Shown: positions 5,621 to 44,265 of the stretch, piece by piece | Position numbering within the stretch: the first letter of the stretch is position 1 | How the letters are laid out: the number at the start of each line of letters is the position of its first letter | Assembly (NCBI GenBank): GCA_944392255.1 | Contig: CALXVY010000002.1 | Span: 11,106-75,105 of the forward strand | DNA from: an uncultured Alphaproteobacteria bacterium | Lineage (GTDB): Bacteria; Pseudomonadota; Alphaproteobacteria; RF32; CAG-239 | Length of the DNA stretch: 64,000 nt | Direction: 5' to 3' | Made by a program: the position numbers and the translations under genes | The notes under the pieces: generated by a model | Database searches by the model: none | The model's input: only the letters and a program-made list of their open reading frames with translations | Told to the model about the DNA's origin: nothing

Positions 5621-5926
5621 CTACCAGCTTGATTTAACTAAACCTGGGATTTCACCTCTGCCGGCTTTCTCGCGCAATTCAACACGAGCAATACCGAACT
5701 TGCGGTAATATCCGCGAGAACGACCGGTCAATTTGCAGCGGTTTCTAAAACGAATTGCTGCAGAGTTACGCGGCAGTTCTGCCAATTTCAAAGTCGCTTG
5801 GAATCTCTCCTCAGGAGAAACAGTTTTATCCATAACGATCTCTTTGAGTTTCAAACGGCGTGAAGCGAACTTCTTAGCCATTTTAGCTCTTTTCAAGTTT
5901 CTGTAGATTTCACTTGTTTTTGCCAT
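5621..5926 (-). CDS. rpsN: 30S ribosomal protein S14
   Basis: 101 aa; [31 protein letters not shown]... C-term ...[18 protein letters not shown]. Confidence 0.9.
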
Positions 5927-5940
5927 AGTTCAGTCTCCAC

Positions 5941-6480
5941 TTATTTCTTGCACGGCAAGTTAAATGAGGTCAGAAGAGCTTTAGCTTCTTCATCGGTCTT
6001 TGCGGTAGTGCAGATGCAAACATCCAAACCGTGAATATTTTCAACTTTATCATAGTTGATTTCCGGGAAGATGATTTGTTCTTTAATACCGAAAGCAAAA
6101 TTTCCGCGACCGTCAAAGTTTTTACCGGTAATACCGTGGAAGTCACGAACACGCGGCAAAGCCATATTGATCAATCTTTCCAAGAACTCATACATTCTGT
6201 CAGAACGAAGAGTTACTTTGCAGCCGATAGGCATACCTTCTCTGAGCTTAAAAGTAGCAATTGATTTACGAGCATGAGTCATAACAGGTTTTTGACCAGC
6301 AATCAATGCCAATTCTTCAGCAGCGGTGTTGAGTTTTTTCTTATCGGTAACAGCGTCGCCGACACCAACGTTCAACACAATCTTTGTCAACTTCGGAATC
6401 TCATGTGGGTTTTTGTAACCGAATTTTTCCACAAGAGATTTCTTAATGACCTCGTTATAAAGTTTTTCAAAATTAGTCAT
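5941..6480 (-). CDS. rplE: 50S ribosomal protein L5
   Basis: 179 aa; ...[16 protein letters not shown]...[10 protein letters not shown]... Confidence 0.95.
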
Positions 6481-6491
6481 TAGATTTTCCC

Positions 6492-6809
6492 CTATTTATC
6501 GATTACTTCACCGGATTTACGAGCGACGCGTACTTTTTTGCCATCAACTTCTTTGTAACCAACTTTAGTTGCTTTTCCAGATTTCGGATCAACAATGGCT
6601 ACGTTAGAAACGTTGATAGGAGCTTCTTTCGTAACAATGCCGCCAGGAGTAGTTTGGCTGGGTTTGGTATGTCTTTTAACCAAGTTGATACCTTGAACAA
6701 CCACTTTACTCTCTTTAGGCAAAGCTTTTACGACTTCACCGGTTTTGCCTTTGTCTTCACCAGACAAAACAATAACCTGATCGCCTTTTTTAATTTTCAT
6801 CTTAGGCAT
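6492..6809 (-). CDS. rplX: 50S ribosomal protein L24
   Basis: 105 aa; [26 protein letters not shown]... KOW motif. Confidence 0.9.
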
Positions 6810-6810
6810 A

Positions 6811-7179
6811 TTATAAAACCTCCGGTGCTAACGAAATTATTTTCATAAATTTCTTTGCACGCAATTCTCTGGTAACGGGGCCAAAGATACGAGTACCGAT
6901 AGGCTCGCCGTCCTTATTAATCAGAACTGCAGCGTTTTTGTCAAAACGGATAACACTACCGTCTTTACGTCTGATGTCAGAAGCTGTTCTAACAATCACA
7001 GCTTTTTGCACATCACCTTTCTTTACGCGTCCTTTTGGGATAGCGTTTGTAACAGAAACTACAATCACATCGCCGACCGAAGCATGCATTCTCTTGGAAC
7101 CGCCAAGAACTTTAATGCACTGCACCTGACGAGCACCTGAGTTATCAGCTACATCAAGGTTGGTTTGCATCTGTATCAT
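6811..7179 (-). CDS. rplN: 50S ribosomal protein L14
   Basis: 122 aa; [28 protein letters not shown]... Confidence 0.95.
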
Positions 7180-29774: not shown

Positions 29775-31412
29775 ATGTTTGTCAGCCTCAATAAAAAATT
29801 TATTTATACAATTGTAATCTTCTTTGCAATTACCGCCATGATATTCTTGTATTCATTTTATCTAACATACGGAATAAGATTTCAAAACGAATTAAAAGCC
29901 AACATCAGCCGTAATCAGCAATATATCAATTTGTTATATGAAAATAACTTAATGAGAAAAAAGCTCATTCAAATCGCCAAACAACATCCACAAATCAATC
30001 TTCCTAAAGAAATTGTTGCTCAAGATATTTTCAACTTAGAAAACACAATATCCAAAGAAAAAGAGCGTATACAGCAATTACAAGCAAGCTATGATGCTAG
30101 GTATGCTTCAATTTATGAGGGTATCAAAATTATTGCCGCCAGCGCTGTACTAATCATTTTATCATTGCTCCTACTTTGGTTTTTATTAAAGAGATGGGTG
30201 TTAACCCCCTTAAATATTTTAGCAGATGTAAGCAAAAACGTAACCAATGGTAATTTATCTCAGCGTGCCATACCCTATCGCACTCGTTATTTCTTAGATG
30301 AGACAGATTTTTTAATTGATACTTTTAATAACATGTTGGATAAATTAGAGCAAAGCATTTCGGAAATTCAAGAAGCCGAAAATTTTTTACAAAAGATTAT
30401 TGACGGTATTCCAGATGGTTTACGTGTAATAGACCAAAATTATAATATTATCATAGCCAACAAAGCCTATTATCAACAAGTCGGTTCTAAAGACAAAAGT
30501 TTAAGATGTTATGAAGCATCTCAACAAAGAAGTACCCCCTGCAATACCAACATTACCAGCTGTCCGTTAAAAGAAATCTGCCACAAAAAGAAAAAACATA
30601 TTCATGTTATTCAGCAATTTGCCCACAATCCCAACAAACATTTATACATCAACGCTGCGCCATTAAAAATTGAAAATAGACTATTGATAATTGAAATAAT
30701 CCGTGATTTAAGCGAAGATATTAAATTTTCACACCAACAAAAACTCTCTTCTTTAGGTTTTATGACAACTTCCGTTGCGCATGAAATGAAAAACCATTTA
30801 GGCGCCATAAGAATTATTATTGAGCGTTTACTTGAAAACCCAAATACATCGGCATCGGAGCAAACAAAACTCCTCAAACTTATCTTGCAACAAATTATAG
30901 AAAGCATTAATGTTCCCGAAAGACTATTAAAATTATCTCATTTATCGACAGACGAACATCAAAAAATAAATTGCTACGAAAATATTAAAGATGTTGTTGC
31001 CTTAATGGACTATGAGGCAAAAACCCACGGCATAAACATAACAATCGAAGGGGAAAAAGACGTAACGATTATCGGTAATGAAAATGACTTCAAAATGGTC
31101 ATCATAAATTTAATTCTTAATGCCATCAAAGCCGGCAAACCTGACGGAAACATTTTAATAAAAATAAGCGCAGATAAGCACCAAAATTTAATACAAGTAA
31201 TAGATGATGGCTGCGGTATTGCAGAAAATGTGCTGCCACACATATTTGATCCTTTCTATTCTGATGGCAAAGAAGGTTCTATAGGCGGAACCGGTTTAGG
31301 TTTGGCAATTGTAAAATCTATCATGGAAAAACATAAGGGTCATATTTCCGTTGAAAGCAAAATAGGAGTTGGAACTTCTTTTAACTTACAATTTCCAATA
31401 AACAAAAAATAA
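29775..31412 (+). CDS. sensor histidine kinase (TM + HAMP/PAS + HisKA + HATPase); no adjacent response regulator
   Basis: H-box TSVAHEMKNHLGAI; ATP-lid ...IQVIDDGCGIAENVLPHIFDPFYS...GGTGLGLAIVKSI...; N-terminal TM helices. Confidence 0.85.
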   Translation: MFVSLNKKFIYTIVIFFAITAMIFLYSFYLTYGIRFQNELKANISRNQQYINLLYENNLMRKKLIQIAKQHPQINLPKEIVAQDIFNLENTISKEKERIQQLQASYDARYASIYEGIKIIAASAVLIILSLLLLWFLLKRWVLTPLNILADVSKNVTNGNLSQRAIPYRTRYFLDETDFLIDTFNNMLDKLEQSISEIQEAENFLQKIIDGIPDGLRVIDQNYNIIIANKAYYQQVGSKDKSLRCYEASQQRSTPCNTNITSCPLKEICHKKKKHIHVIQQFAHNPNKHLYINAAPLKIENRLLIIEIIRDLSEDIKFSHQQKLSSLGFMTTSVAHEMKNHLGAIRIIIERLLENPNTSASEQTKLLKLILQQIIESINVPERLLKLSHLSTDEHQKINCYENIKDVVALMDYEAKTHGINITIEGEKDVTIIGNENDFKMVIINLILNAIKAGKPDGNILIKISADKHQNLIQVIDDGCGIAENVLPHIFDPFYSDGKEGSIGGTGLGLAIVKSIMEKHKGHISVESKIGVGTSFNLQFPINKK

Positions 31413-31483
31413 CATTGCAAAAATAAAAATATAGGGATATATATGAAGCAATAAATAAAAAAAGACAAATAAAGGATTGATTT

Positions 31484-31705
31484 ATGAGTAAAGAAGAACT
31501 TCTGGAATTAACCGGAGAAGTAATAGAAAAACTCCCTAATGCCATGTTTCGCGTCAAATTGGAAAATGGTGTAGAGATTTTGGCGCATACTGCCGGAAAA
31601 ATGCGTAAATTCCGCATTCGCGTCATGGTTGGAGATAAGGTAGATATTGAAATGACACCTTATGATTTAACCAAAGGCCGCATTACTTTTCGCCACAAAG
31701 ATTAA
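31484..31705 (+). CDS. infA: translation initiation factor IF-1
   Basis: 73 aa; ...[51 protein letters not shown]... Confidence 0.9.
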
Positions 31706-31712
31706 AAATAAA

Positions 31713-31745
31713 ATCCCCGAAAATTCATTTCGGGGATTTTTTTTA
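31713..31745. terminator. bidirectional intrinsic terminator after infA
   Basis: ATCCCCGAAAATTCATTTCGGGGAT followed by TTTTTTTT. Confidence 0.6.
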
Positions 31746-31754
31746 GAGGTTAAC

Positions 31755-32372
31755 TTAAATATATTTAATCAAAGCAAAACTTCCGATTAACAAAACAAAA
31801 AACAAAATAGCGAGCATACCTAAATTTTTTTCAATAAATACTTTCATCGGCTCGCCATATTTTTTCAAAAGCCAAGCCACTAAAAAGAAACGTCCGCCAC
31901 GTGCCAATACAGAAGCAATGGTAAAGACAAACAAATCTAAGTGAACAACACCACTGGCAATTGTAATAACTTTATATGGGAAAGGTGTAATACCAGCCCC
32001 AAAAACAATCCAAGCCCCCCATTCATGATAGTAACCGCTAAAGACATCAAATTCATGCCCATAGCCATAAAAGTTCAAAAGAGGCATAGCCACTGCATCA
32101 AATAAAAACACCCCAATGGCATAACCAAAATATCCGCCTAAAACGCTAGCAACAGTAGTCACACCGGCAATTTTCCATGCTTTTTGCGGAGTTGCCAAGA
32201 CCATAGGAATAAGCATAACATCAGGCGGAATGGGAAAGAAAGAACTTTCGATAAAAGAAACCGCAAACAAAAAATACAAAGCTGTAGGGCGAGCCGCTAA
32301 ATTAAGCATATAATCATAACATTTTTGCACACACCCACGACTAAATCCTAAAATACGAGAAACAAGAACCAT
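31755..32372 (-). CDS. DedA/YqaA-family membrane protein
   Basis: 205 aa polytopic; ...YFLFAVSFIESSFFPIPPDVMLIPM... (SNARE-associated/DedA signature). Confidence 0.65.
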   Translation of the reverse strand: MVLVSRILGFSRGCVQKCYDYMLNLAARPTALYFLFAVSFIESSFFPIPPDVMLIPMVLATPQKAWKIAGVTTVASVLGGYFGYAIGVFLFDAVAMPLLNFYGYGHEFDVFSGYYHEWGAWIVFGAGITPFPYKVITIASGVVHLDLFVFTIASVLARGGRFFLVAWLLKKYGEPMKVFIEKNLGMLAILFFVLLIGSFALIKYI

Positions 32373-32387
32373 AATTTTTCCTTTATA

Positions 32388-33242
32388 TTAAATTTCCAAA
32401 TCATTTTGTTGAGCAAAAGCAGCAACAGTATTTTCCAAAAGCATAGCAATTGTCATCGGCCCAACCCCACCTGGAACAGGAGTAATATAAGCCGCTTTTT
32501 TAGAAACATCATCAAAATCAACATCGCCGCAAATTTTTCCATCAATACGATTAATTCCGACATCCACAACAAAAGCACCTTCTTTTATCCAAGAAGCTTT
32601 AATCATTTTAGGTTTACCACATGCGGCAATAACAATATCTGCTTGTTTAACAACATCTTCAATATTTTGGGTTTTGGAATGCACCACGGTAACCGTACAG
32701 TTATGATTAAGGAGCAATGCCGTCATAGGCTTTCCAACAATATTAGAGCGCCCTATTATCACCGCTGATTTACCGGTCAAATCAGAATAGACGCTATGCA
32801 GCATATATAAAATTCCTTTTGGAGTAGCCGGAACAATCGCTTGAGAAGAATTAGCCTGCAACAAACCAATATTATAAGGATTAAAACCATCAACATCTTT
32901 TTCTGGGCTAATATGCATTAAAATGCGCAAAGAATTAATTTGCTTTGGCAAGGGTAACTGCACTAAAATACCATGCACATGATGATCGTTATTAAGCTGA
33001 GAAATGAGTTCAATCAATTCGCGTTCGCTAACATTTTCATCTAAATGGTAAATATGACAATCCATTCCCACACTTTGGGCTGCCTTTTGTTTACTGCGAT
33101 CATAAATCAAACTGGCTTCATCATTACCCACAAGAATAACCGCCAAATTTGGTTTAAGAGGACAAGTTGCAATTTTCCGCGCAATATTTTCCTTAATTTT
33201 TGCGGCTAAAGCCTTACCATCAATTATATGAGCATCCACCAT
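32388..33242 (-). CDS. folD: bifunctional methylenetetrahydrofolate dehydrogenase/cyclohydrolase
   Basis: 284 aa; MVDAHIIDGKALAAKIKENI...LAVILVGNDEASLIY... Confidence 0.9.
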   Translation of the reverse strand: MVDAHIIDGKALAAKIKENIARKIATCPLKPNLAVILVGNDEASLIYDRSKQKAAQSVGMDCHIYHLDENVSERELIELISQLNNDHHVHGILVQLPLPKQINSLRILMHISPEKDVDGFNPYNIGLLQANSSQAIVPATPKGILYMLHSVYSDLTGKSAVIIGRSNIVGKPMTALLLNHNCTVTVVHSKTQNIEDVVKQADIVIAACGKPKMIKASWIKEGAFVVDVGINRIDGKICGDVDFDDVSKKAAYITPVPGGVGPMTIAMLLENTVAAFAQQNDLEI

Positions 33243-33243
33243 A

Positions 33244-33603
33244 TTAACCTCTCTGCGCCCATGCTAAAAGTTTTGAGATAATTTCGGAAGATTTATTATG
33301 CAGCAAAATTTTTTTATATTTATCCGTTTGTCCGGCAACAATTTCTATTTGATTTTTAGGAAGCTTTAATTCTTTGGCCAAAAAGCTTTGTAATTCAGAA
33401 TTTGCTTTACCCTTTTCTGGCACACTTACCACATTTATCTTCAGAAAATCATCTCCCTGAGCATCGGTAAAAATACCCTTTATCACACAAGAAGAAGAGT
33501 TAGGATTTAACCTAATTCTTAAAATTATGCCTTGCGCAACTTCATTATAAAACACAATTCTTGTATCCTTAAAATTAAGAAAGTAAGAATTGAGAAAGTA
33601 CAA
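33244..33603 (-). CDS. DUF167 (YggU) family protein; the true start is probably downstream of the ORF-track start
   Basis: ...VPEKGKANSELQSFLAKELKLPKNQIEIVAGQTDKYKKIL...; ORF-track start overlaps yggT by 29 nt. Confidence 0.55.
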   Translation of the reverse strand: MYFLNSYFLNFKDTRIVFYNEVAQGIILRIRLNPNSSSCVIKGIFTDAQGDDFLKINVVSVPEKGKANSELQSFLAKELKLPKNQIEIVAGQTDKYKKILLHNKSSEIISKLLAWAQRG

Positions 33604-33883
33604 AAATCAAACGGCTGATAAACAACAAAACCAGCAACAAGACAAACGGAGAAAAGTCAAAATTGCTGAAGACCACAGCCGGAAATTTCTCTTTAATTTT
33701 CTCATACACCGGATGTGTTGCCTTTTCTAAAAGTTCCATTGTTTTCTGAGAATATTTATTAGATGTCTCCAAAATTTTGAAATGAATTAACCAATGTAAA
33801 ATAATCTCAATAATCACAATTTTGAAATACAAACTAACAATCAAACCAATAATATATAAGAAAGGTTCAAATAAAGCACCCAT
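33575..33883 (-). CDS. yggT: YggT-family membrane protein
   Basis: 102 aa, 2 TM; paired with the DUF167 gene as in many bacteria. Confidence 0.6.
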   Translation of the reverse strand: MGALFEPFLYIIGLIVSLYFKIVIIEIILHWLIHFKILETSNKYSQKTMELLEKATHPVYEKIKEKFPAVVFSNFDFSPFVLLLVLLFISRLIFVLSQFLLS

Positions 33884-33895
33884 AATTAAAACTCC

Positions 33896-35128
33896 TTAAG
33901 CCATCTGTTGAGCATTCAATCGTTTTTTAAGAGCAATATATCGGTTCATATCAAACGATTGTATTCTTTCTTTGTTAACTGATTGTGGCGCAATTGAGCT
34001 TGTTTGTCTACCTCTAAGTTCATTTATCCTCTTAATAACATCAGATTTAGACTGAGATTGTATATTTTTCTGTAAAATTTCTTCGCTCATACTATAATCA
34101 GGAACAAAAGATTTGACCCCGAGCTTATACAAAATCTTATCGGGAACATCTTTGTCACGACGTCTATACTCGAGCACAGCCCCACAAACATTACGTCGGA
34201 TTTGTTCTTCTTCGGTGAAATACCCATGATTTTGAGAAGTATTAGCCACCTTAACCAAGTTCATCATTTCCATATGCTTAGCATAGGCCTCTGACAAGGC
34301 ATTATCAGGATGAATTCTATTAAGGAAGCGCAAATCATTAGCCCGACGCAACATATATTCTTGATAACGTTGCTTACGAAGCTGGTTAGCTTTATCCATC
34401 TCATCTACAGCAGCCATAGCAATCAAGGTTTGAGCCATCATCAAACTTGCTTTATATTCCATATCAGAATAAAGAGTTTTATTATCCTCTTGCTCAATCA
34501 TACGCTGATATTCTAAAGCCAAACGTTTTTCCTCTTCTTTGGCCTGACGTTCAGCCTCAGCTTCTTCGCGGCTTTTAGTTGAAGCAATAACCGCGCTGCG
34601 AAGTTGCTGAAGTTTAGCAAGTTTTAACTGCAAAAAATCAAGACGTTCTTTAGCTTTTGAAGAATTAGATGCGGCATACAAAGCCATATAGACACGCATT
34701 TCAGTTTCACGCTCATCCAAAGTCGACAAGAAATTTTCACGAAAATCTATATCGGCATCCGTTATATTGCCATCAGTCATATCATGAATGACTTTTCCTG
34801 CATCTTCAATCCAATAAAAATATTCATTCTGGGGAGCAACTTCATTTTCAATTGATTGGATGGAATTAGCCACAATAAAAGCAAAATCTTCCAAATTTTT
34901 ATCAAGAGGAAGGTTTTCTCCATCAACGACACGTTTTAATACTTCTTTAGCTTTTTCTTTTTCCGGACCTTTCAAATCGGGACGAGCACGCTCAACTCCT
35001 TTTTCAATAATGTCCATTTTTTTCTTTTCTTTTTCAGGATTTTTTCGAGTAAGCTCTGCTTTTGAGAGCTCTTTTTTATCTTTATCCTCGGAAGAAGAAA
35101 TGCCTCTAAGTTCCTTAATATCAACCAT
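33896..35128 (-). CDS. hypothetical highly charged coiled-coil protein (410 aa)
   Basis: K/E-rich N-terminus (KEKKKM, KEKAKE), central ...REEAEAERQAKEEEKRLALEYQRMIEQ...; no TM, signal peptide or known catalytic motif recognised. Confidence 0.5.
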   Translation of the reverse strand: MVDIKELRGISSSEDKDKKELSKAELTRKNPEKEKKKMDIIEKGVERARPDLKGPEKEKAKEVLKRVVDGENLPLDKNLEDFAFIVANSIQSIENEVAPQNEYFYWIEDAGKVIHDMTDGNITDADIDFRENFLSTLDERETEMRVYMALYAASNSSKAKERLDFLQLKLAKLQQLRSAVIASTKSREEAEAERQAKEEEKRLALEYQRMIEQEDNKTLYSDMEYKASLMMAQTLIAMAAVDEMDKANQLRKQRYQEYMLRRANDLRFLNRIHPDNALSEAYAKHMEMMNLVKVANTSQNHGYFTEEEQIRRNVCGAVLEYRRRDKDVPDKILYKLGVKSFVPDYSMSEEILQKNIQSQSKSDVIKRINELRGRQTSSIAPQSVNKERIQSFDMNRYIALKKRLNAQQMA

Positions 35129-35142
35129 AAATTTTCCTCAAA

Positions 35143-35589
35143 TTATGCTTCTTCGAAAATAAGTTTAGCTTCCTCGAGCCAAATAACACGATCAATTACC
35201 CATTGGCTGATTTGTTCGATTTTTTCCAATTCGACACCCATAGCTTGCCCGACACGACCGATAAGCAAAACTTCTGCATCACTCAACTCATTATCAGCAT
35301 GAGCTAAAATGCACATTTCTTTGATAAGTTCCAAAGCGGCACGACGATTATCAATAATTTTAACGGCATTAACCACATCATCAATATTATTGATTTGCAA
35401 AATTTCTTGTACTCTGGTTTGAGGCACGCCATAAATGACGGCAACATCCTGAATAAACTCAATCTCCTCTTTATCAAGCTTTCCATCGGCATTGGCCAAA
35501 GAAGCCAGAGCTTTCATAAAAGCGATTCTTTGATTGTCATTCAGTTTTGACAAGATGTTCATATTCATCTCCATTCCTAAATTACTCAT
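35143..35589 (-). CDS. TerB-like (tellurite-resistance TerB / DjlA N-terminal-like) small protein
   Basis: 148 aa with two TerB-type repeats (...ALASLANADGKLDKEEIEFIQ... and ...CILAHADNELSDAEVLLI...); 14 nt upstream of the 410-aa gene. Confidence 0.45.
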   Translation of the reverse strand: MSNLGMEMNMNILSKLNDNQRIAFMKALASLANADGKLDKEEIEFIQDVAVIYGVPQTRVQEILQINNIDDVVNAVKIIDNRRAALELIKEMCILAHADNELSDAEVLLIGRVGQAMGVELEKIEQISQWVIDRVIWLEEAKLIFEEA

Positions 35590-35772
35590 TTGTTATTCTC
35601 CTAAATATAATTCATGATAGCGTAAAAAAAATTAAAATTTCAATAAAAAAGAATACTTAAAAAGAGATTTACAAAAAAAAGCAGCTTTGCTCTGAGAAAA
35701 CATTTGAAATTATCAAGAGAATACCCTAAAATATAGATTTAAAGAGCTATTGAAGATTATTAGGAATCAAAC

Positions 35773-37110
35773 GTGAATAAAAAACACTATTATATCAAAA
35801 CTTTTGGCTGCCAAATGAATGTCTACGATTCTCTGCGCATTGCCAATATCTTAGAAACTTTAGGCTATGCATCAACCAACACGCCTAAATCTGCAGATTT
35901 GATAATTTTTAACACCTGCCACATCAGAGAAAAAGCCGCAGAAAAAGTTTTTTCTGATTTAGGTCGTGCTTATGCAATAAAGCAAGAAAGGGCCGCTGAA
36001 GGAAAAGACACCATTATCGGTGTCATGGGTTGCGTTGTTCAAGCAGAAGATGAACAAATTGCCAAACGAGCTCCCTTTGTTGATTTTGCCACAGGACCGC
36101 TGACCTACCACCGTTTGCCGGAAATCTTAGCTAAAATCGGACGTAAAAAAGGTACTACAATAATAGATACTGAATTTCCGGTAGAATCAAAATTTGACTT
36201 TTTACCTGAAAATCATTCAGCCGGAGGTTGTTCTTATATTGCCATTCAAGAAGGATGCAACAATTTCTGCACCTATTGTGTTGTCCCTTATACTCGTGGT
36301 GTGGAATGCTCCCGTCCGGTGGAAGATGTTTTGCAAGAAGCCAAACGCTTGGTTTCCGAAGGAACTCTAGAAATCAATTTGTTGGGACAAAATGTTAATT
36401 CTTATCATGGTGAAGATAAAAACGGAAAAGAACGCAACCTAGCCTATTTGCTGAGAGAAATAGCTAACATAGATGGACTAAAGCGCATTCGTTACACCAC
36501 CTCATATCCGGCAGATGTTGATGACGATTTAGTCGCTTGCCACCATGACTTAAAACAATTGATGCCTTATCTTCATTTGCCAATCCAATCCGGTTCAGAC
36601 AAAATCTTAAAAGCCATGAATAGAAGACACAATTCCGCTGATTATTTGCGCGTTGTAGAAAAACTGCAAAAAGCTAATCCTGATTTGCGCATGTCATCAG
36701 ATTTCATCGTCGGCTTCCCCGGAGAAGATGATGCCGATTTTCAAGCAACATTAGACATTGTAAATCAAGTCAAATTTATTCAGGCATTTTCTTTCAAATA
36801 TAGCAGACGAGCAGGAACTCCCGCTGCTATTATGAAAAATCAAGTTGAAGAAAAAGTCAAAAAAGAACGTTTAGATATTTTGCAAGATTTACTCTTTTCT
36901 TACCAGCGCAAATTCAATGAAGAAAGCGTGGGAAAAGTTATGCCGGTTTTGTTTGATATGAAAGGCCGACACGCCGGACAACTCATCGGTCGCACACCAT
37001 ATATGCAAAATTTGCATGCTAATTTAGGAAAAGAATTCTTAAACAAAATTGTTAATGTAAAAGTAACGGAAGCCACCACCAATTCATTAAGTGGCATAAA
37101 GGAGGGTTAA
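35773..37110 (+). CDS. miaB: tRNA-i6A37 methylthiotransferase (GTG start)
   Basis: MNKKHYYIKTFGCQMNVYDS...; radical-SAM CxxxCxxC (CNNFCTYC). Confidence 0.9.
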   Translation: MNKKHYYIKTFGCQMNVYDSLRIANILETLGYASTNTPKSADLIIFNTCHIREKAAEKVFSDLGRAYAIKQERAAEGKDTIIGVMGCVVQAEDEQIAKRAPFVDFATGPLTYHRLPEILAKIGRKKGTTIIDTEFPVESKFDFLPENHSAGGCSYIAIQEGCNNFCTYCVVPYTRGVECSRPVEDVLQEAKRLVSEGTLEINLLGQNVNSYHGEDKNGKERNLAYLLREIANIDGLKRIRYTTSYPADVDDDLVACHHDLKQLMPYLHLPIQSGSDKILKAMNRRHNSADYLRVVEKLQKANPDLRMSSDFIVGFPGEDDADFQATLDIVNQVKFIQAFSFKYSRRAGTPAAIMKNQVEEKVKKERLDILQDLLFSYQRKFNEESVGKVMPVLFDMKGRHAGQLIGRTPYMQNLHANLGKEFLNKIVNVKVTEATTNSLSGIKEG

Positions 37111-37113
37111 ACC

Positions 37114-38082
37114 ATGGCAGAAATCAGCTTTGAACTTTTTAACAATGTTCTGGTACAACAACTTGTCGGACCGCAAGATGACAATCTGCGTTTGATAGAA
37201 AAAATGACCGGAACAGAAATTTCTTCTTTTGGCAATCAGATAAACATTAAAGGAAACCAAGATGCCATAACTTTAGCCAAGAATGCCATAGACACCCTAT
37301 ATAACAAAGTCAGCCGCGGCATTGAAATTGGTGAAGAAGAAGTAAAAGCCGCAGTTAGAATGAGCGGAGGCAACGTCGGAGATAATAGCACGGAACAAAA
37401 TTTAAGTGATATTGTCCTCAAGACCAAAAAACGCCATATTTACCCAAGAACCGCCACCCAAGCTCAATACATTCAAGAGATGATGAAAAATGAACTTGTT
37501 TTTGGCTTAGGACCTGCCGGTACAGGTAAAACCTACTTAGCCGTAGCTTTGGCCGTATCTATGATGTTGGAAGGAAAAATTGACAAGATTATTTTGTCTC
37601 GTCCGGCAGTCGAAGCTGGTGAAAACTTAGGTTTTCTCCCCGGAGATTTAAAAGAAAAAGTAGACCCGTATTTACGTCCCTTGTATGATGCTTTATACGA
37701 GATGTTACCGGCAGAACAAGTAGATAAAAAAATAGCTATCGGTGAAATTGAAGTTGCACCTTTGGCTTTCATGCGTGGTCGTACTTTGACCAATGCCTTT
37801 GTTATTTTGGACGAGGCTCAAAATACCACCCCAATGCAAATGAAAATGTTTTTAACCCGTATGGGTGAAAATTCCCGCATGGTTGTTAATGGCGACTTAA
37901 GTCAGGTAGACTTACCCAAAGGCACTATCTCCGGTTTGCGCGATGCCTTGGATATTTTGAAAAATACTCAAGGCATAAGTTCCGTACGCTTCACGGCAAC
38001 CGATGTGGTTAGACATGGCCTTGTTGCCAAAATTGTCAAAGCCTATGAAGAAAGGAGCCAAAAGACCTATGGCGAAGAATAA
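37114..38082 (+). CDS. ybeZ: PhoH-like ATPase
   Basis: Walker A GPAGTGKTYLAVALAV; miaB-phoH-ybeY order. Confidence 0.9.
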   Translation: MAEISFELFNNVLVQQLVGPQDDNLRLIEKMTGTEISSFGNQINIKGNQDAITLAKNAIDTLYNKVSRGIEIGEEEVKAAVRMSGGNVGDNSTEQNLSDIVLKTKKRHIYPRTATQAQYIQEMMKNELVFGLGPAGTGKTYLAVALAVSMMLEGKIDKIILSRPAVEAGENLGFLPGDLKEKVDPYLRPLYDALYEMLPAEQVDKKIAIGEIEVAPLAFMRGRTLTNAFVILDEAQNTTPMQMKMFLTRMGENSRMVVNGDLSQVDLPKGTISGLRDALDILKNTQGISSVRFTATDVVRHGLVAKIVKAYEERSQKTYGEE

Positions 38083-38596
38083 TTTTGAGCTCAATATTGA
38101 TATTGAAGAAGAGGGCTGGATAAAAGCCCTCCCTTCTTTACAAGACTTATCAGAACAAATCTTTGATGCCGTTTTAACTTATGTAAAGGCTCATGAAGAT
38201 ATAGATTTTTTGCAAATGGATAAACCCATTTGTGTGAACTTAGCTTTAAGTAATGACGAGAATATTCATCGGCTGAATGCTGAGTTTCGACATATGGACA
38301 AACCCACTAATGTTCTCTCTTTTGCCAATATAGATGATGAAAGTTTTGCGGATGAAATCAAAATTGCCCCACAAATTGAACTTGGTGACATCATGATTGC
38401 ACTAGAAACCATGCAACGCGAAGCTCAAGAAAAAGGCATCAGTTTACATGACCATTATTGCCATTTATTCATTCATGGTCTTTTACATCTTTTAGGTTTT
38501 GACCATATTGAAGATGATGAAGCTGAATATATGGAAAGTTTTGAAATTGCCATTTTGGCACAAATGAATATGGAAAATCCATATAAGGAAGATTAG
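38069..38596 (+). CDS. ybeY: endoribonuclease YbeY
   Basis: HLFIHGLLHLLGFDH zinc motif; start at MAKNNFELNIDIEEEG (14-nt overlap with phoH end). Confidence 0.85.
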   Translation: MAKNNFELNIDIEEEGWIKALPSLQDLSEQIFDAVLTYVKAHEDIDFLQMDKPICVNLALSNDENIHRLNAEFRHMDKPTNVLSFANIDDESFADEIKIAPQIELGDIMIALETMQREAQEKGISLHDHYCHLFIHGLLHLLGFDHIEDDEAEYMESFEIAILAQMNMENPYKED

Positions 38597-38597
38597 T

Positions 38598-40133
38598 TTG
38601 CGTTTATTTTCAGCAACATTAGATTGGCTTTTGTCTCAAAAAAAGACCTTATGTTTAGCACTTGGCATTATGTCTGCGAGTGCTCTTCCGCCTTTTTATG
38701 CTTTTCCGATTTTATTTTTAACCTTCTCATCACTGCTGTTAATTTTAAATACAGCAAAAGATAAGAAGCAAAGTTTTGCTTATGGTTATTGGTTTGGCTT
38801 TGGCTACTTTGCCTGCAATTTATCATGGATTGGCAATGCTGTCCTAATAGATGCCGCTAAACTTGGATGGTTATTTCCGATAATTATTCTTGCCGCCGGC
38901 GGTTTTTTTGGACTTTTCACCGCCCTACCGGCATTATTAAGTAATTTATTTAAATCTTTCTATTCACGTTGGTTGGCATTTGCCGCTTGGTGGAGCCTTT
39001 TTGAATGGATAAGAAGCTTTATATTCACCGGTTTTCCATGGAACTTACTCGGTTCTGTTTTATCTTTCAACCTGACATTATTACAGGCTGCCTCTATAAT
39101 CGGAACATATGGCCTTTCTTTGGCTGTACTTCTTATATGCTCCGCCCCTGCCCTGATATTTTATTATCGAAATAAAAAAAGTATCATAATCTCTCTGGGA
39201 AGTATATTACTTATATTTGGAATACTTATAGGTTATGGAACATATCATTTATCAAGCATGAAAGATACCCCTTCGGATACAAAAATTCGCTTAGTACAAC
39301 CGGCAATTCCTCAAAAAATGAAATGGAATCGTCAAAAATTAGAACAAAATTTTGAACAATATATCAATATGTCAAAACAAGACGGACTAGAAGATATAGA
39401 CTTCGTTATCTGGGGAGAAACAGCAACACCTTTTGCTCTCGATTTTGAACCCCAATATTTAAATAAAATAACTCAGGCTATTCCAAGCAACGGTTACTTG
39501 ATAACCGGTCTGGTTCGATATGAATTTCAGGAAGGAGATTTTCATCCGCTTAATTCCTCTTTTATAATTGATAAAAGCGGAAAAATAAGAAACTATTATG
39601 ATAAAATTCATCTTGTTCCATTTGGAGAATATATTCCGTTTCGGCGTTATTTTCCGGAATGGATTACACCAATAACCAATACTATAACAGATTTCCTCGC
39701 CGGAGACGGACACAAATCCATAAAAATGGATAAACAACCAAGCTTTGGAATATCCATTTGTTATGAAATTATTTTTCCACATCAAATTATCAATCCCAAG
39801 GACAAACCGGACTGGCTCATCAATCTGACCAATGATGGTTGGTATGGCATTTCTCAAGGTCCATATCAACATTTAGTCACAACGCAATTACGTGCCATAG
39901 AAGAAGGAAGAAGCATTGTCCGCGCCGCTAATACCGGAATCAGTGCCGTGATAAATCCATATGGAAAAATCTTAGCTAAAATAGATTTAAATAAAACAGA
40001 TATTAGAGATATAAATTTGCCTCAACAAATATCAATTGATACAATTTATGGAAAAATTGGCAATTATATACCTCTTATATTATGTTTATTGAATATACTA
40101 ATTGCATTTGCAATTAAAAATAAACATAGCTAA
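38598..40133 (+). CDS. lnt: apolipoprotein N-acyltransferase
   Basis: 511 aa; multi-TM N-terminal half plus C-terminal CN-hydrolase domain (...WGETATPF...ICYEIIFPH...). Confidence 0.85.
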   Translation: MRLFSATLDWLLSQKKTLCLALGIMSASALPPFYAFPILFLTFSSLLLILNTAKDKKQSFAYGYWFGFGYFACNLSWIGNAVLIDAAKLGWLFPIIILAAGGFFGLFTALPALLSNLFKSFYSRWLAFAAWWSLFEWIRSFIFTGFPWNLLGSVLSFNLTLLQAASIIGTYGLSLAVLLICSAPALIFYYRNKKSIIISLGSILLIFGILIGYGTYHLSSMKDTPSDTKIRLVQPAIPQKMKWNRQKLEQNFEQYINMSKQDGLEDIDFVIWGETATPFALDFEPQYLNKITQAIPSNGYLITGLVRYEFQEGDFHPLNSSFIIDKSGKIRNYYDKIHLVPFGEYIPFRRYFPEWITPITNTITDFLAGDGHKSIKMDKQPSFGISICYEIIFPHQIINPKDKPDWLINLTNDGWYGISQGPYQHLVTTQLRAIEEGRSIVRAANTGISAVINPYGKILAKIDLNKTDIRDINLPQQISIDTIYGKIGNYIPLILCLLNILIAFAIKNKHS

Positions 40134-42068: not shown

Positions 42069-42225
42069 ACTTAAAAATATTAAATTAAACAATAATAAAT
42101 AAACTTTTTTTACTATATAAACAATGATTTTCTTGTCAACACCAAAATTTAGACAAAAAATATTTACGAACAACAAAAAATGGTGTATGATACATTCATA
42201 TATAAACAACAAGAAGGACAATGAC

Positions 42226-44265
42226 ATGGCAAAAAAAAAGCAAAAACGCAAAGTTGCTAAAGAGTTTGAAGTACATTCTTCTGAATTTCCTCAAAAACAA
42301 GTAAAGAAACAAAAAACCCCTACTTTAACCTTGGAAGATCGCGTCAATAATGAATTTGATGAAATGGCTGTTTCTGTAGCCTATGGCAAAAACGAAGGAG
42401 AAAAACTCAAAGCCATCCGCTCTTTCAATACCTTTATCGACAACAATGTTCCTGCCGAAGAGAAAGACAAAATCAAAGCTCTGGTTGAAGAAAGATTAAA
42501 AGATAACGACTTTATCTATGGTAGTGAATTTATCGATTTAACTCCTCTCAAAGAATATACTGATCGTTTGTTTGAAGAACGCAAAGTTGCTAAAGAGTTT
42601 GAACCTCATTCTTCTAAAAAGGTTAAAGAAACAAAAAAATCAAAGAAAAAAGAAACATCGGAAAATCTTGCTGATGTCGTTAAATCAGTTAAAGATAATG
42701 CCAATAATACGCTTGGCGGAATTTTGGGCGGATTAGCAGAAAATGCGGCTAAAAGAGAAGAACATAAAATGCCTCGTCCAAATCCAAATAAAGAAGCAGA
42801 AAAAGCTCTTCACCAAGCCTTACTCGATGGCATTGCTAATGAAGAAATCAAAAACATCAAAGGTTACAGCAATGATGATTTGAAAAAAATCTTAGAATAT
42901 CATGACAAACTTCTTTATGCCGATGATGGTAACGGTACGGCTTTAGAAAGTTTATATGATAACAGCATTGCCGATTTGAAAAAATTTGCCGAAGGTAAAG
43001 TATCTATTGATAATGATAGCTACGAAACAATGATGCAATTCATCAAAACTTTTGGTACTAACTCTAAAGGGCAATTACTTCCGGAAGGCAAAGCTGCTTA
43101 TGATAAATTGATGAATTTAATGGCAGAACAACAAAAACAAAAAATTCTTGCCAACAAAGAAAAATATCAAGCTCATGCTGAAATCGTCAAGAATGTTCAA
43201 AATCATGCCAATAATACATTAGCTGGAATTTTGGGCGGACTAGCTGCCAATGCGGCTAAAAGAGAAAAGGCTGCTACAAACAGCGCCACCTCAACAACTA
43301 CGCCGAAAACAACTAAAGAAGAAGCTCCGACAGAATTTGCTATCGGCGACGAAGAAGCTAAAGACACAACAAAAGTAATCTTGAAGGAAAAACAACATCA
43401 GGAACCCCAAAAAAACGAAAACAAAACATATATTCCGGTAACTCCAACTTCAGCGACAACCAATAAAAATTCATTTACACCAGAAAACACAACCAATGAA
43501 ACCCCCAAACCGCAACCGGAGGAAAAGAAAAAAGGTTTCTGGGGCAAGACAAAAGATTGGCTTAAGGATAAATGGAAAAAAATTGCCGCTATTACTGCAT
43601 TAGCTGCTGCCGCTTTGCTTTTACCTAAAAGTTGCGCCGGCAATGGTAATAATGAAAATAAAAACCAAGACAGAGATATACCGGAAAAAACCACAGTCAT
43701 TCCGTCAGATTCTATTGCTAAGCCAACTCCTGCAGATACTTTACAGTTGACCCCGCAAGACTTAAGCAATGGTTTCTATCTGGAACGTTCTGCCGGCTTC
43801 AAGGGTGAACAAGAAGGTATCAGTTTCAAAGATGCTGAAAAAGCCAATAAACAAGACCTCTTGACCATCAAACGTCTAATGGCTCAAAAGAAACTGGATA
43901 TAAACAAATTCAAACGTCATACAACCTCACAAAATAAAGAACCGATTACGATAACGGAAATTGCATATAAAATGCGTGTTGTAATGCAAAACTTCCCCGG
44001 TTCTAAAATTGCAAAAAGTATGGAAAATATCTTTTCCGGCAAAGTTAGCGAACGTGATCAAAACAACCTCTATGGAGCTTTTACGCATATCAATGATTAT
44101 GGTCAATTAATTGACCGTAATGGCAAACCAATAAACACCATAGATATGGAAAAAGAAATCAGTGCTGAACGTTTTGGAAAAGGTAGTGAAGAATATGGCA
44201 CGGAAGGCACCGATAATAACTTTATTCAAGTTTTGAAAAAGCATAAAGATATCTTAAGTAAATAA
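42226..44265 (+). CDS. hypothetical bitopic membrane protein (679 aa) with internal sequence repeats
   Basis: duplicated blocks RKVAKEFE(V/P)HSS and ANNTL(G/A)GILGGLA(E/A)NAAKRE(E/K); single TM helix IAAITALAAAALLLP at about residue 470; K/T/P-rich linker; no known domain recognised. Confidence 0.55.
   Translation: MAKKKQKRKVAKEFEVHSSEFPQKQVKKQKTPTLTLEDRVNNEFDEMAVSVAYGKNEGEKLKAIRSFNTFIDNNVPAEEKDKIKALVEERLKDNDFIYGSEFIDLTPLKEYTDRLFEERKVAKEFEPHSSKKVKETKKSKKKETSENLADVVKSVKDNANNTLGGILGGLAENAAKREEHKMPRPNPNKEAEKALHQALLDGIANEEIKNIKGYSNDDLKKILEYHDKLLYADDGNGTALESLYDNSIADLKKFAEGKVSIDNDSYETMMQFIKTFGTNSKGQLLPEGKAAYDKLMNLMAEQQKQKILANKEKYQAHAEIVKNVQNHANNTLAGILGGLAANAAKREKAATNSATSTTTPKTTKEEAPTEFAIGDEEAKDTTKVILKEKQHQEPQKNENKTYIPVTPTSATTNKNSFTPENTTNETPKPQPEEKKKGFWGKTKDWLKDKWKKIAAITALAAAALLLPKSCAGNGNNENKNQDRDIPEKTTVIPSDSIAKPTPADTLQLTPQDLSNGFYLERSAGFKGEQEGISFKDAEKANKQDLLTIKRLMAQKKLDINKFKRHTTSQNKEPITITEIAYKMRVVMQNFPGSKIAKSMENIFSGKVSERDQNNLYGAFTHINDYGQLIDRNGKPINTIDMEKEISAERFGKGSEEYGTEGTDNNFIQVLKKHKDILSK

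Follow-up and report, generated by a model that had tools for sequence, protein, structure and literature searches.

A TerB-family protein and a lineage-specific helical partner at the head of a predicted housekeeping operon in uncultured Alphaproteobacteria: a candidate docking motif shared by two paralogous modules

TerB domains are widespread: ter operons encode them, DjlA contains one, and they are met in several candidate defence systems. Here we describe a TerB-encoding gene pair located in a stretch of 64,000 nucleotides (nt), referred to as the window, from an uncultured Alphaproteobacteria bacterium (GTDB lineage RF32; CAG-239; assembly GCA_944392255.1, contig CALXVY010000002.1, positions 11,106 to 75,105 of the forward strand). 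In this pair, a TerB-type protein of 148 amino acids (aa; 35143..35589, minus strand) is followed after 14 nt by an all-alpha, modular protein of 410 aa (33896..35128, minus strand; hereafter X), and both open reading frames (ORFs) stand as the original prediction had placed them. The nearest described counterparts of the small protein are the stand-alone TerB proteins (PF05099/COG3793; structures 2h5n, i.e. PG1108, and 2ou3), which it resembles in size, helical fold and the duplicated D-G-x-x-x-x-x-E motif. It differs from them by an additional, invariant C-terminal helix of 27 residues, by the lack of ter partners and by its placement in a predicted housekeeping operon, next to a dedicated partner. 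Unlike the genes of the Ter system (terZABCDEF), the pair is not co-located with other ter genes, its neighbours (in the window and in 20 loci) being miaB, phoH, ybeY, lnt, yggT, yggU, folD and dedA. The arrangement of the PDC-S48/Dpd systems of PADLOC, with all components in a variable or mobile island, is likewise not found at the TerB-X locus.

Other described systems share single traits with this locus. The membrane co-chaperone DjlA has a TerB-like module by the inner membrane, the role of which is undefined (bioRxiv 10.1101/2024.08.29.610257). The likeness to DjlA lies in this module, to which the window TerB yields a local, sub-threshold NCBIfam match (residues 23-66, 17.8 bits against a cut-off of 162), and the difference in the lack of a transmembrane helix and of a J-domain in both TerB and X. 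A J-domain in X was considered on account of an HPD tripeptide at residues 274-276 and rejected, since orthologues do not keep the tripeptide and Pfam gives no DnaJ match. In Proteobacteria, yggT followed by yggU (DUF167) belongs to yggS-yggT-yggU or proC-type operons (PMC6396713). The same succession is present here, with the difference that TerB and X stand 5' of yggT in the place of yggS or proline genes, and that folD and a DedA gene follow yggU. From DivIVA-like coiled-coil scaffolds, X is set apart by having neither a long uninterrupted coiled coil nor a DivIVA domain (as judged by Pfam and by the helix lengths of an AlphaFold2 (AF2) model). A literature search returned no paper combining a TerB domain and YggT and, to our knowledge, the TerB-X pairing, the second TerB pairing presented below and the motif common to both are undescribed in the literature searched.

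The element of X on which our reading turns is a short motif, I-x-x-L-R-G, present at both ends of the protein. In the N-terminal copy (residues 3-12, D-I-K-E-L-R-G-I-S-S; 35093..35122, minus strand) L7 and G9 are invariant and R8 is nearly so across 42 sequences; in the C-terminal one (residues 365-376, I-K-R-I-N-E-L-R-G-R-Q-T; 34001..34036, minus strand) I368, N369, L371, G373, R374 and Q375 are invariant in the same number of sequences, L371 and G373 being conserved also over the 147 sequences of the X family. Both copies lie in flexible segments of the AF2 model (predicted local distance difference test (pLDDT) below 50-65, and below 50 for the N-terminal copy), and this coincidence of invariant residues with low pLDDT fits the expectation for binding motifs. 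When the motif is counted as [IVLM]xx[LMI][RKSTQ]G, 108 of the 147 family members have it within their last 80 residues (5.4 expected) and 49 within their first 45 (3.1 expected), the expected numbers being drawn from shuffles. The flanks of the motif and the tail of X are basic, as opposed to the acidic TerB (isoelectric point 4.4, net charge -12).

The motif recurs in a second, paralogous module. One distant carrier of the syntenic TerB-X pair (locus L020; GCA_017961285.1, JAGCXO010000037.1) holds an additional TerB (TerB2). Aligned over its full length, C-terminal helix included, TerB2 shares 34% identity with the window TerB, and its family amounts to 124 clusters. In five of the five loci examined, the gene next to TerB2 encodes a protein of 98-125 aa without a Pfam match. 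Its start lies inside TerB2 by 8-14 nt in four loci and the reading frames in L020 overlap by 11 nt, which suggests translational coupling. In these small partners a variable middle separates a conserved N-terminal helix (K-L-A-Y-L-Q/K-G/S) from the conserved C-terminus K-I-A-A-L-R-G-I-S-x-P-G-D-Y-L, within which K-I-A-A-L-R-G-I-S is the sole strongly conserved element; their alignment to the hidden Markov model (HMM) of the X family falls precisely on its C-terminal motif, at a weak score of 6-9 bits. The two modules are thus alike in joining a TerB paralogue to a downstream partner with conserved terminal helices, the C-terminal one bearing I-A-A-L-R-G in the TerB2 partners. They differ in that the small partner lacks the X core and in that the context is a PMT_2 glycosyltransferase instead of yggT/dedA: in three of the five loci, a gene for a PMT_2 (GT-C) membrane glycosyltransferase immediately precedes TerB2.

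In these three loci, TerB2 and its partner follow the PMT_2 gene with gaps of 2-12 nt (L021:5574-7802, L022:5459-7721 and L024:2573-4799), and murG is found nearby, in convergent orientation, in L021 and L024. This PMT_2/murG neighbourhood may point to a connection of the TerB2 module with the envelope or with glycosylation. The corresponding segment of L020 (8783-12079, minus strand) encodes TerB2 (143 aa), a motif-bearing ORF of 101 aa and then an ORF of 827 aa, which has no significant Pfam match, contains H-E-G-G-H (HExxH-like) and may represent a metalloprotease-like client of the module.

As a TerB paralogue is the sole constant neighbour of the motif proteins across two differing genomic contexts, we propose that TerB and X form a complex via the I-x-x-L-R-G motif, and would put the probability of this at about 45%. 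In such a complex the amphipathic, Gly-capped and basic-flanked I-x-x-L-R-G helices of X would dock onto the acidic TerB (one to each pseudo-repeat, or a single one to each TerB molecule), and the partners of TerB2 would dock onto TerB2 in the same way. TerB would then act as a small receptor or regulatory subunit for X, possibly responsive to divalent cations through its acidic motifs, and the conserved core of X would constitute the effector or ligand-binding part. More tentatively, the helix could be a dedicated peptide ligand of a TerB-fold domain, with at least two paralogous receptor-client modules coupling their clients to inner-membrane machinery (YggT and DedA for X, a GT-C glycosyltransferase for the TerB2 partners).

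Some members of the DedA family are undecaprenyl-phosphate flippases, and the donors of GT-C enzymes are linked to polyprenyl phosphate. The presence of YggT, DedA and a GT-C enzyme among the neighbours points weakly towards action at the inner membrane, and YggT has been described as an osmotic-shock membrane protein (PMC6396713). The complex might accordingly work alongside YggT and DedA on the cytoplasmic side of the inner membrane and serve ion, osmotic or envelope-lipid homeostasis, a role that we regard as possible and rather doubtful. The suggestion of membrane-proximal signalling in the original prediction keeps its plausibility on circumstantial grounds, as both the X/TerB and the TerB2 pairs are predicted to be co-transcribed with genes for integral membrane proteins.

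Several observations weigh against the proposed complex or parts of it. The N-terminal motif is limited to the 49 family members counted above, and the alignment of the TerB2 partners to the X-family HMM is weak. The motif common to X and the TerB2 partners may mean nothing more than a shared ancestry of the partners, or it may bind a third component (a membrane protein or a chaperone) in the place of TerB. Furthermore, the operon structure is a prediction from spacing and consensus scans, and folD, placed in the same operon, has no obvious tie to a membrane function. As to the cation response, metal binding by TerB domains is said to exist in the literature as a prediction only, reportedly one made by Anantharaman, Iyer and Aravind in 2012.

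We are highly confident in the descriptive part of this account (i.e. real and constrained genes at the head of a predicted operon, the TerB fold and the X family). The small protein belongs to the TerB family and displays the defining features tested for, apart from a linkage to ter genes. Its score on Pfam PF05099 is 53.6 bits (gathering cut-off 24.4, E 3.4e-14, in two stretches), and PF05099 is found in 120 of 120 TerB homologues among the matches listed. A phmmer search of the PDB sequences recovers 2ou3 and 2h5n (COG3793/TerB structures) at E ~0.003. The AF2 model (pLDDT 86.5, predicted template modelling score (pTM) 0.82) has 2h5n as its best PDB match in Foldseek, with a probability of 1.00 and a template modelling score of 0.47-0.54, but with an E of only 0.06. 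The TerB-type assignment made from the sequence by the original prediction is therefore upheld by profile, sequence and fold searches. The two D-G/N-x-L-x-x-x-E motifs (residues 35-42 and 99-106) lie in the acidic stretches NADGKLDKEE (residues 33-42) and HADNELSDAE (residues 97-106; with N for G), in which D35, G36, E42, H97 and D99 do not vary among 52 sequences and D39 and E106 hardly do. The additional C-terminal helix (residues 121-147), nearly invariant as a whole, has K123, I124, Q126, I127, S128, W130, R134, W137, F145 and E146 as its conserved positions. In comparison to close relatives, the ratio of nonsynonymous to synonymous substitution rates (dN/dS) of TerB is 0.02-0.05.

The sole part of X universal to its family (147 members) is a core of ~110 aa (residues ~76-186; copy 1 at 34571..34903, minus strand, with an occupancy of ~1.0 in 147 sequences), which is also the best-matching stretch for most distant profile matches. 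Residues E102, Y103, W106, R130, F133, R140, E141, E143, L150, Y151, K169, R177 and T184 are each kept in at least 70% of the members, so that the signature of the family reads E-Y-x-x-W...R-x-x-F...R-E-x-E...L-Y...K...R...T in the core, plus the C-terminal I-x-x-L-R-G, and the window X carries all of it. A degenerate second copy of the core (residues 221-302; 34223..34468, minus strand) was detected by hhalign (residues 99-190 against 221-302: probability 96.7%, E 3.7e-10). It is confined to the subfamily of ~400 aa and is missing from the 294-aa orthologues of L013 and L015; as read by eye, other members of the family duplicate different modules. The possibility that the core (M-T-D-G-N-I-T-D-A-D-I..R-E-N-F-L) is a cryptic TerB repeat was rejected, as hhalign comparisons with the TerB family profile gave probabilities below 1% for the core, for the middle region and for the X family as a whole, the TerB alignment being of low diversity.

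With respect to the overall build of X, the K/E-rich N-terminus recognised in the original prediction corresponds to a linker at residues 13-40 (10 K/R and 8 D/E), and its statement that the protein is not membrane-spanning agrees with a highest Kyte-Doolittle mean over 19 residues of 1.01 (i.e. no transmembrane-like segment). The long coiled coil that it foresaw is replaced in the AF2 model (pLDDT 75.8, pTM 0.66) by a compact helical bundle of 17 helices, the longest of which has 33 residues. X is directly 3' of TerB in all loci, with the exception of L018 (GCA_045643605.1), where an N-terminal piece separates TerB from the main X ORF. In this locus (5689-7092) X is split into an ORF of 96 aa (N-terminal module) and one of 363 aa (core and C-terminal part). 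L018 is the most divergent lineage, and its TerB has a degenerate first acidic motif (KIDRNFDEKE).

X represents a previously undescribed, fast-evolving and lineage-specific protein family without a Pfam model or a detectable fold relative. It has no match in Pfam, NCBIfam, PADLOC, PHROGs or the PDB sequences, its family profile retrieves nothing from the PDB sequences at E up to 10, its AF2 model has no fold match in PDB or BFVD, and a Pfam scan of 10 distant members found no domain; the earlier impression that the protein bears no catalytic motif is in line with this lack of any family or catalytic-domain match. A word-indexed search of 5.8 billion proteins gave 44 relatives, and an exhaustive profile search of 1.84 billion representatives at 50% identity gave 123 clusters (105 at E < 1e-10), mostly of 230-440 aa (range 48-495, fragments among them). 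All titled records of the family are metagenome-assembled genomes of uncultured Alphaproteobacteria or of a proteobacterium, and the human-gut catalogue genomes UMGS1426 and MGYG-HGUT-04400 are among the carriers. The lineage carrying the operon is thus one of uncultured Alphaproteobacteria, at least partly gut-associated, and the narrow distribution bears out the supposition that the large partner is lineage-specific and not a widespread housekeeping family. X is under purifying selection: its dN/dS in comparison to close relatives is 0.10-0.13, a value near that of folD in these genomes and above those of TerB, YggT and DedA. At greater distance it outpaces every neighbour (41% identity where TerB has 76% and MiaB 84%).

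Both genes are preceded by Shine-Dalgarno-like sites, AGGAG (35602-35598) 8 nt 5' of the TerB ATG and GAGGA (35139-35135) 6 nt 5' of that of X. The original prediction saw in them a two-gene unit between yggT/yggU-folD and miaB. These flanks are confirmed by Pfam (miaB being divergent), and the pair turns out to be not self-contained but the beginning of a tightly spaced, co-directional cluster of six genes, TerB-X-yggT-yggU-folD-dedA, for which we predict a single operon on the basis of spacing and of promoter and terminator consensus scans. A predicted sigma-70-like promoter (TTGAAA, 18 nt, TATCAT; 35614..35643, minus strand; score 10/12) is positioned 5' of TerB. It is the best-scoring promoter-like site in the region, and its TTG and TAT.AT are kept in 12 aligned orthologous intergenic regions. 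The gene for the integral membrane protein YggT (33575..33883, minus strand; Pfam YGGT, E 1.2e-11; AAGGAG 5' of the ATG) begins 12 nt after the stop of X and is followed on the same strand by yggU (33244..33603; DUF167, E 2.1e-20), folD (32388..33242; THF_DHG_CYH and THF_DHG_CYH_C) and, as the last predicted operon gene, one for a DedA/VTT-domain membrane protein (31755..32372; VTT_dom, E 8e-07), which at 30 bits stays below the gathering cut-off of 33.9 and whose orthologues in other loci are also called VTT_dom. The gaps along the cluster measure 14, 12, 1 (yggU to folD) and 15 nt; with the TTG start listed for it, yggU shares 29 nt with the end of yggT (33575-33603). The true start of yggU is probably further downstream, since in several loci the tblastn alignments do not set in until residues 14-17 of this ORF. 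An intrinsic-terminator-like hairpin (31710..31740, minus strand), with a 13-bp stem (AAAATCCCCGAAA...TTTCGGGGATTTT) followed by a T-run, is located 3' of dedA and is the sole terminator-like site on the minus strand between the TerB promoter and this point.

The order lnt-ybeY-phoH-miaB, divergent from TerB-X-yggT-yggU-folD-dedA, was found in 12 of 12 species genomes of a GTDB-based collection, and in each of the 20 loci fetched for the X/TerB1 family miaB is divergent from a tightly spaced TerB-X-yggT-yggU-folD. Of the more distant loci, L013-L016 were retrieved by way of TerB homologues and L017-L020 by way of remote X members. This synteny holds from 83% identity down to X members detectable by profile search alone. 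The position of yggT is kept in 20 of 20 loci (in L020 the ORF occupying it has no Pfam match), and past folD the loci vary, with extra ORFs between folD and dedA in L017-L019 and no VTT/DedA gene there in L020. Since rpoB/rpoC, tuf, fusA and rpoN-hpf-ptsN are also within the window, the pair is seated in the core chromosome, and the G+C content (~0.30-0.42 per 500-nt window over 30000-40000) shows no compositional break at TerB-X. TerB and X are real, vertically inherited genes, and not chance ORFs, as indicated by their low dN/dS together with a position kept in all the fetched loci. Furthermore, a tblastn search of 72,556 plasmids and 50,697 phage records found no homologue of X. The conservation of gene order across deep divergence and this absence from plasmids and phages imply that the pair is the head of a vertically inherited housekeeping operon and not a mobile element.

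A few observations were made on the surroundings of the pair. The divergent miaB promoter-like site (TTGAAA, 17 nt, TAAAAT; plus strand, 35690-35735) is also kept in 12 aligned loci, so that the 183-nt intergenic region between miaB and TerB appears to hold two conserved back-to-back promoters. A search for regulatory RNAs over 31000-37500 found no Rfam match at E up to 0.1. The folD gene evolves unusually fast here (dN/dS 0.08-0.16; identity of 62-77% where PhoH and MiaB have 84-98%, in L001-L012). An ORF of 713 aa (42124-44265, plus strand), situated between a Methyltransf_4 gene and the rpoC region, has no Pfam match at E up to 1e-5.

Other explanations can be put forward for the same observations. 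TerB and X could be adjacent and yet independent, with the motif recruiting YggT, DedA, the GT-C enzyme, a chaperone or a protease, and with TerB sensing separately. Motifs in flexible segments are able to bind any partner and both paralogous modules adjoin membrane proteins, both of which speak for this explanation. However, the membrane neighbours differ between modules, being YggT and DedA for X and, for the TerB2 partners, PMT_2 or none, whereas a TerB-family protein is the one constant neighbour of the motif protein in both, and the overlap of TerB2 with its partner suggests that the two are translationally coupled; we consider this explanation unlikely. Somewhat more unlikely still, in our view, is that X serves as a lineage-specific cytoskeletal, division or polarity scaffold in the manner of DivIVA/SepF, with TerB as its regulator. 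A scaffold of this kind would agree with a charged, helical, modular and fast-evolving protein with repeats of varying copy number, encoded directly 5' of yggT, and in Firmicutes sepF, ylmG, ylmH and divIVA are clustered. In the Proteobacteria, however, yggT normally lies outside division clusters, and X neither matches DivIVA, SepF or any other scaffold in Pfam nor adopts the form of an extended coiled coil, its model being a compact bundle without a fold match.

The two remaining explanations start from the company in which TerB domains are usually met. A classical Ter-type module for tellurite, metal or oxidative stress would account for the TerB domain membership and for the conserved acidic motifs, and is improbable in a housekeeping neighbourhood in which no TerA, TerC, TerD, TerE, TerZ or TerF homologue was found in the operon or its flanks at any locus. 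An anti-phage defence or abortive-infection pair, with TerB as the sensor, is in turn suggested by the occurrence of TerB domains in PADLOC candidate systems and by the matches of the window TerB to PDC-S48 (24 bits) and DpdH (12.6 bits). These are local domain matches that cover ~45-70 residues of TerB, and X has no match at all. A strict core-genome position over deep divergence, strong purifying selection, the absence of homologues from plasmids and phages, the lack of a PHROG match and of neighbouring defence genes speak against a defence role, which is largely refuted and which we regard as very improbable. The hint at stress or phage defence in the original prediction consequently loses its footing: TerB-X is neither a tellurite-resistance determinant nor a mobile defence system. 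Among the readings considered, we retain the one in which X docks onto TerB through its I-x-x-L-R-G helices.

Should the interaction between TerB and X fail to hold, the pair would come down to two ordinary conserved hypothetical genes. The locus offers a clean natural pairing that makes the docking of a peptide on TerB directly testable and, if the helix is indeed a dedicated ligand of a TerB-fold domain, peptide docking would be the first concrete molecular function for the enigmatic TerB domain, one that could extend to DjlA and to the TerB-containing defence systems. For the organisms themselves, X defines a new protein family within the conserved core of poorly known, uncultured gut Alphaproteobacteria.

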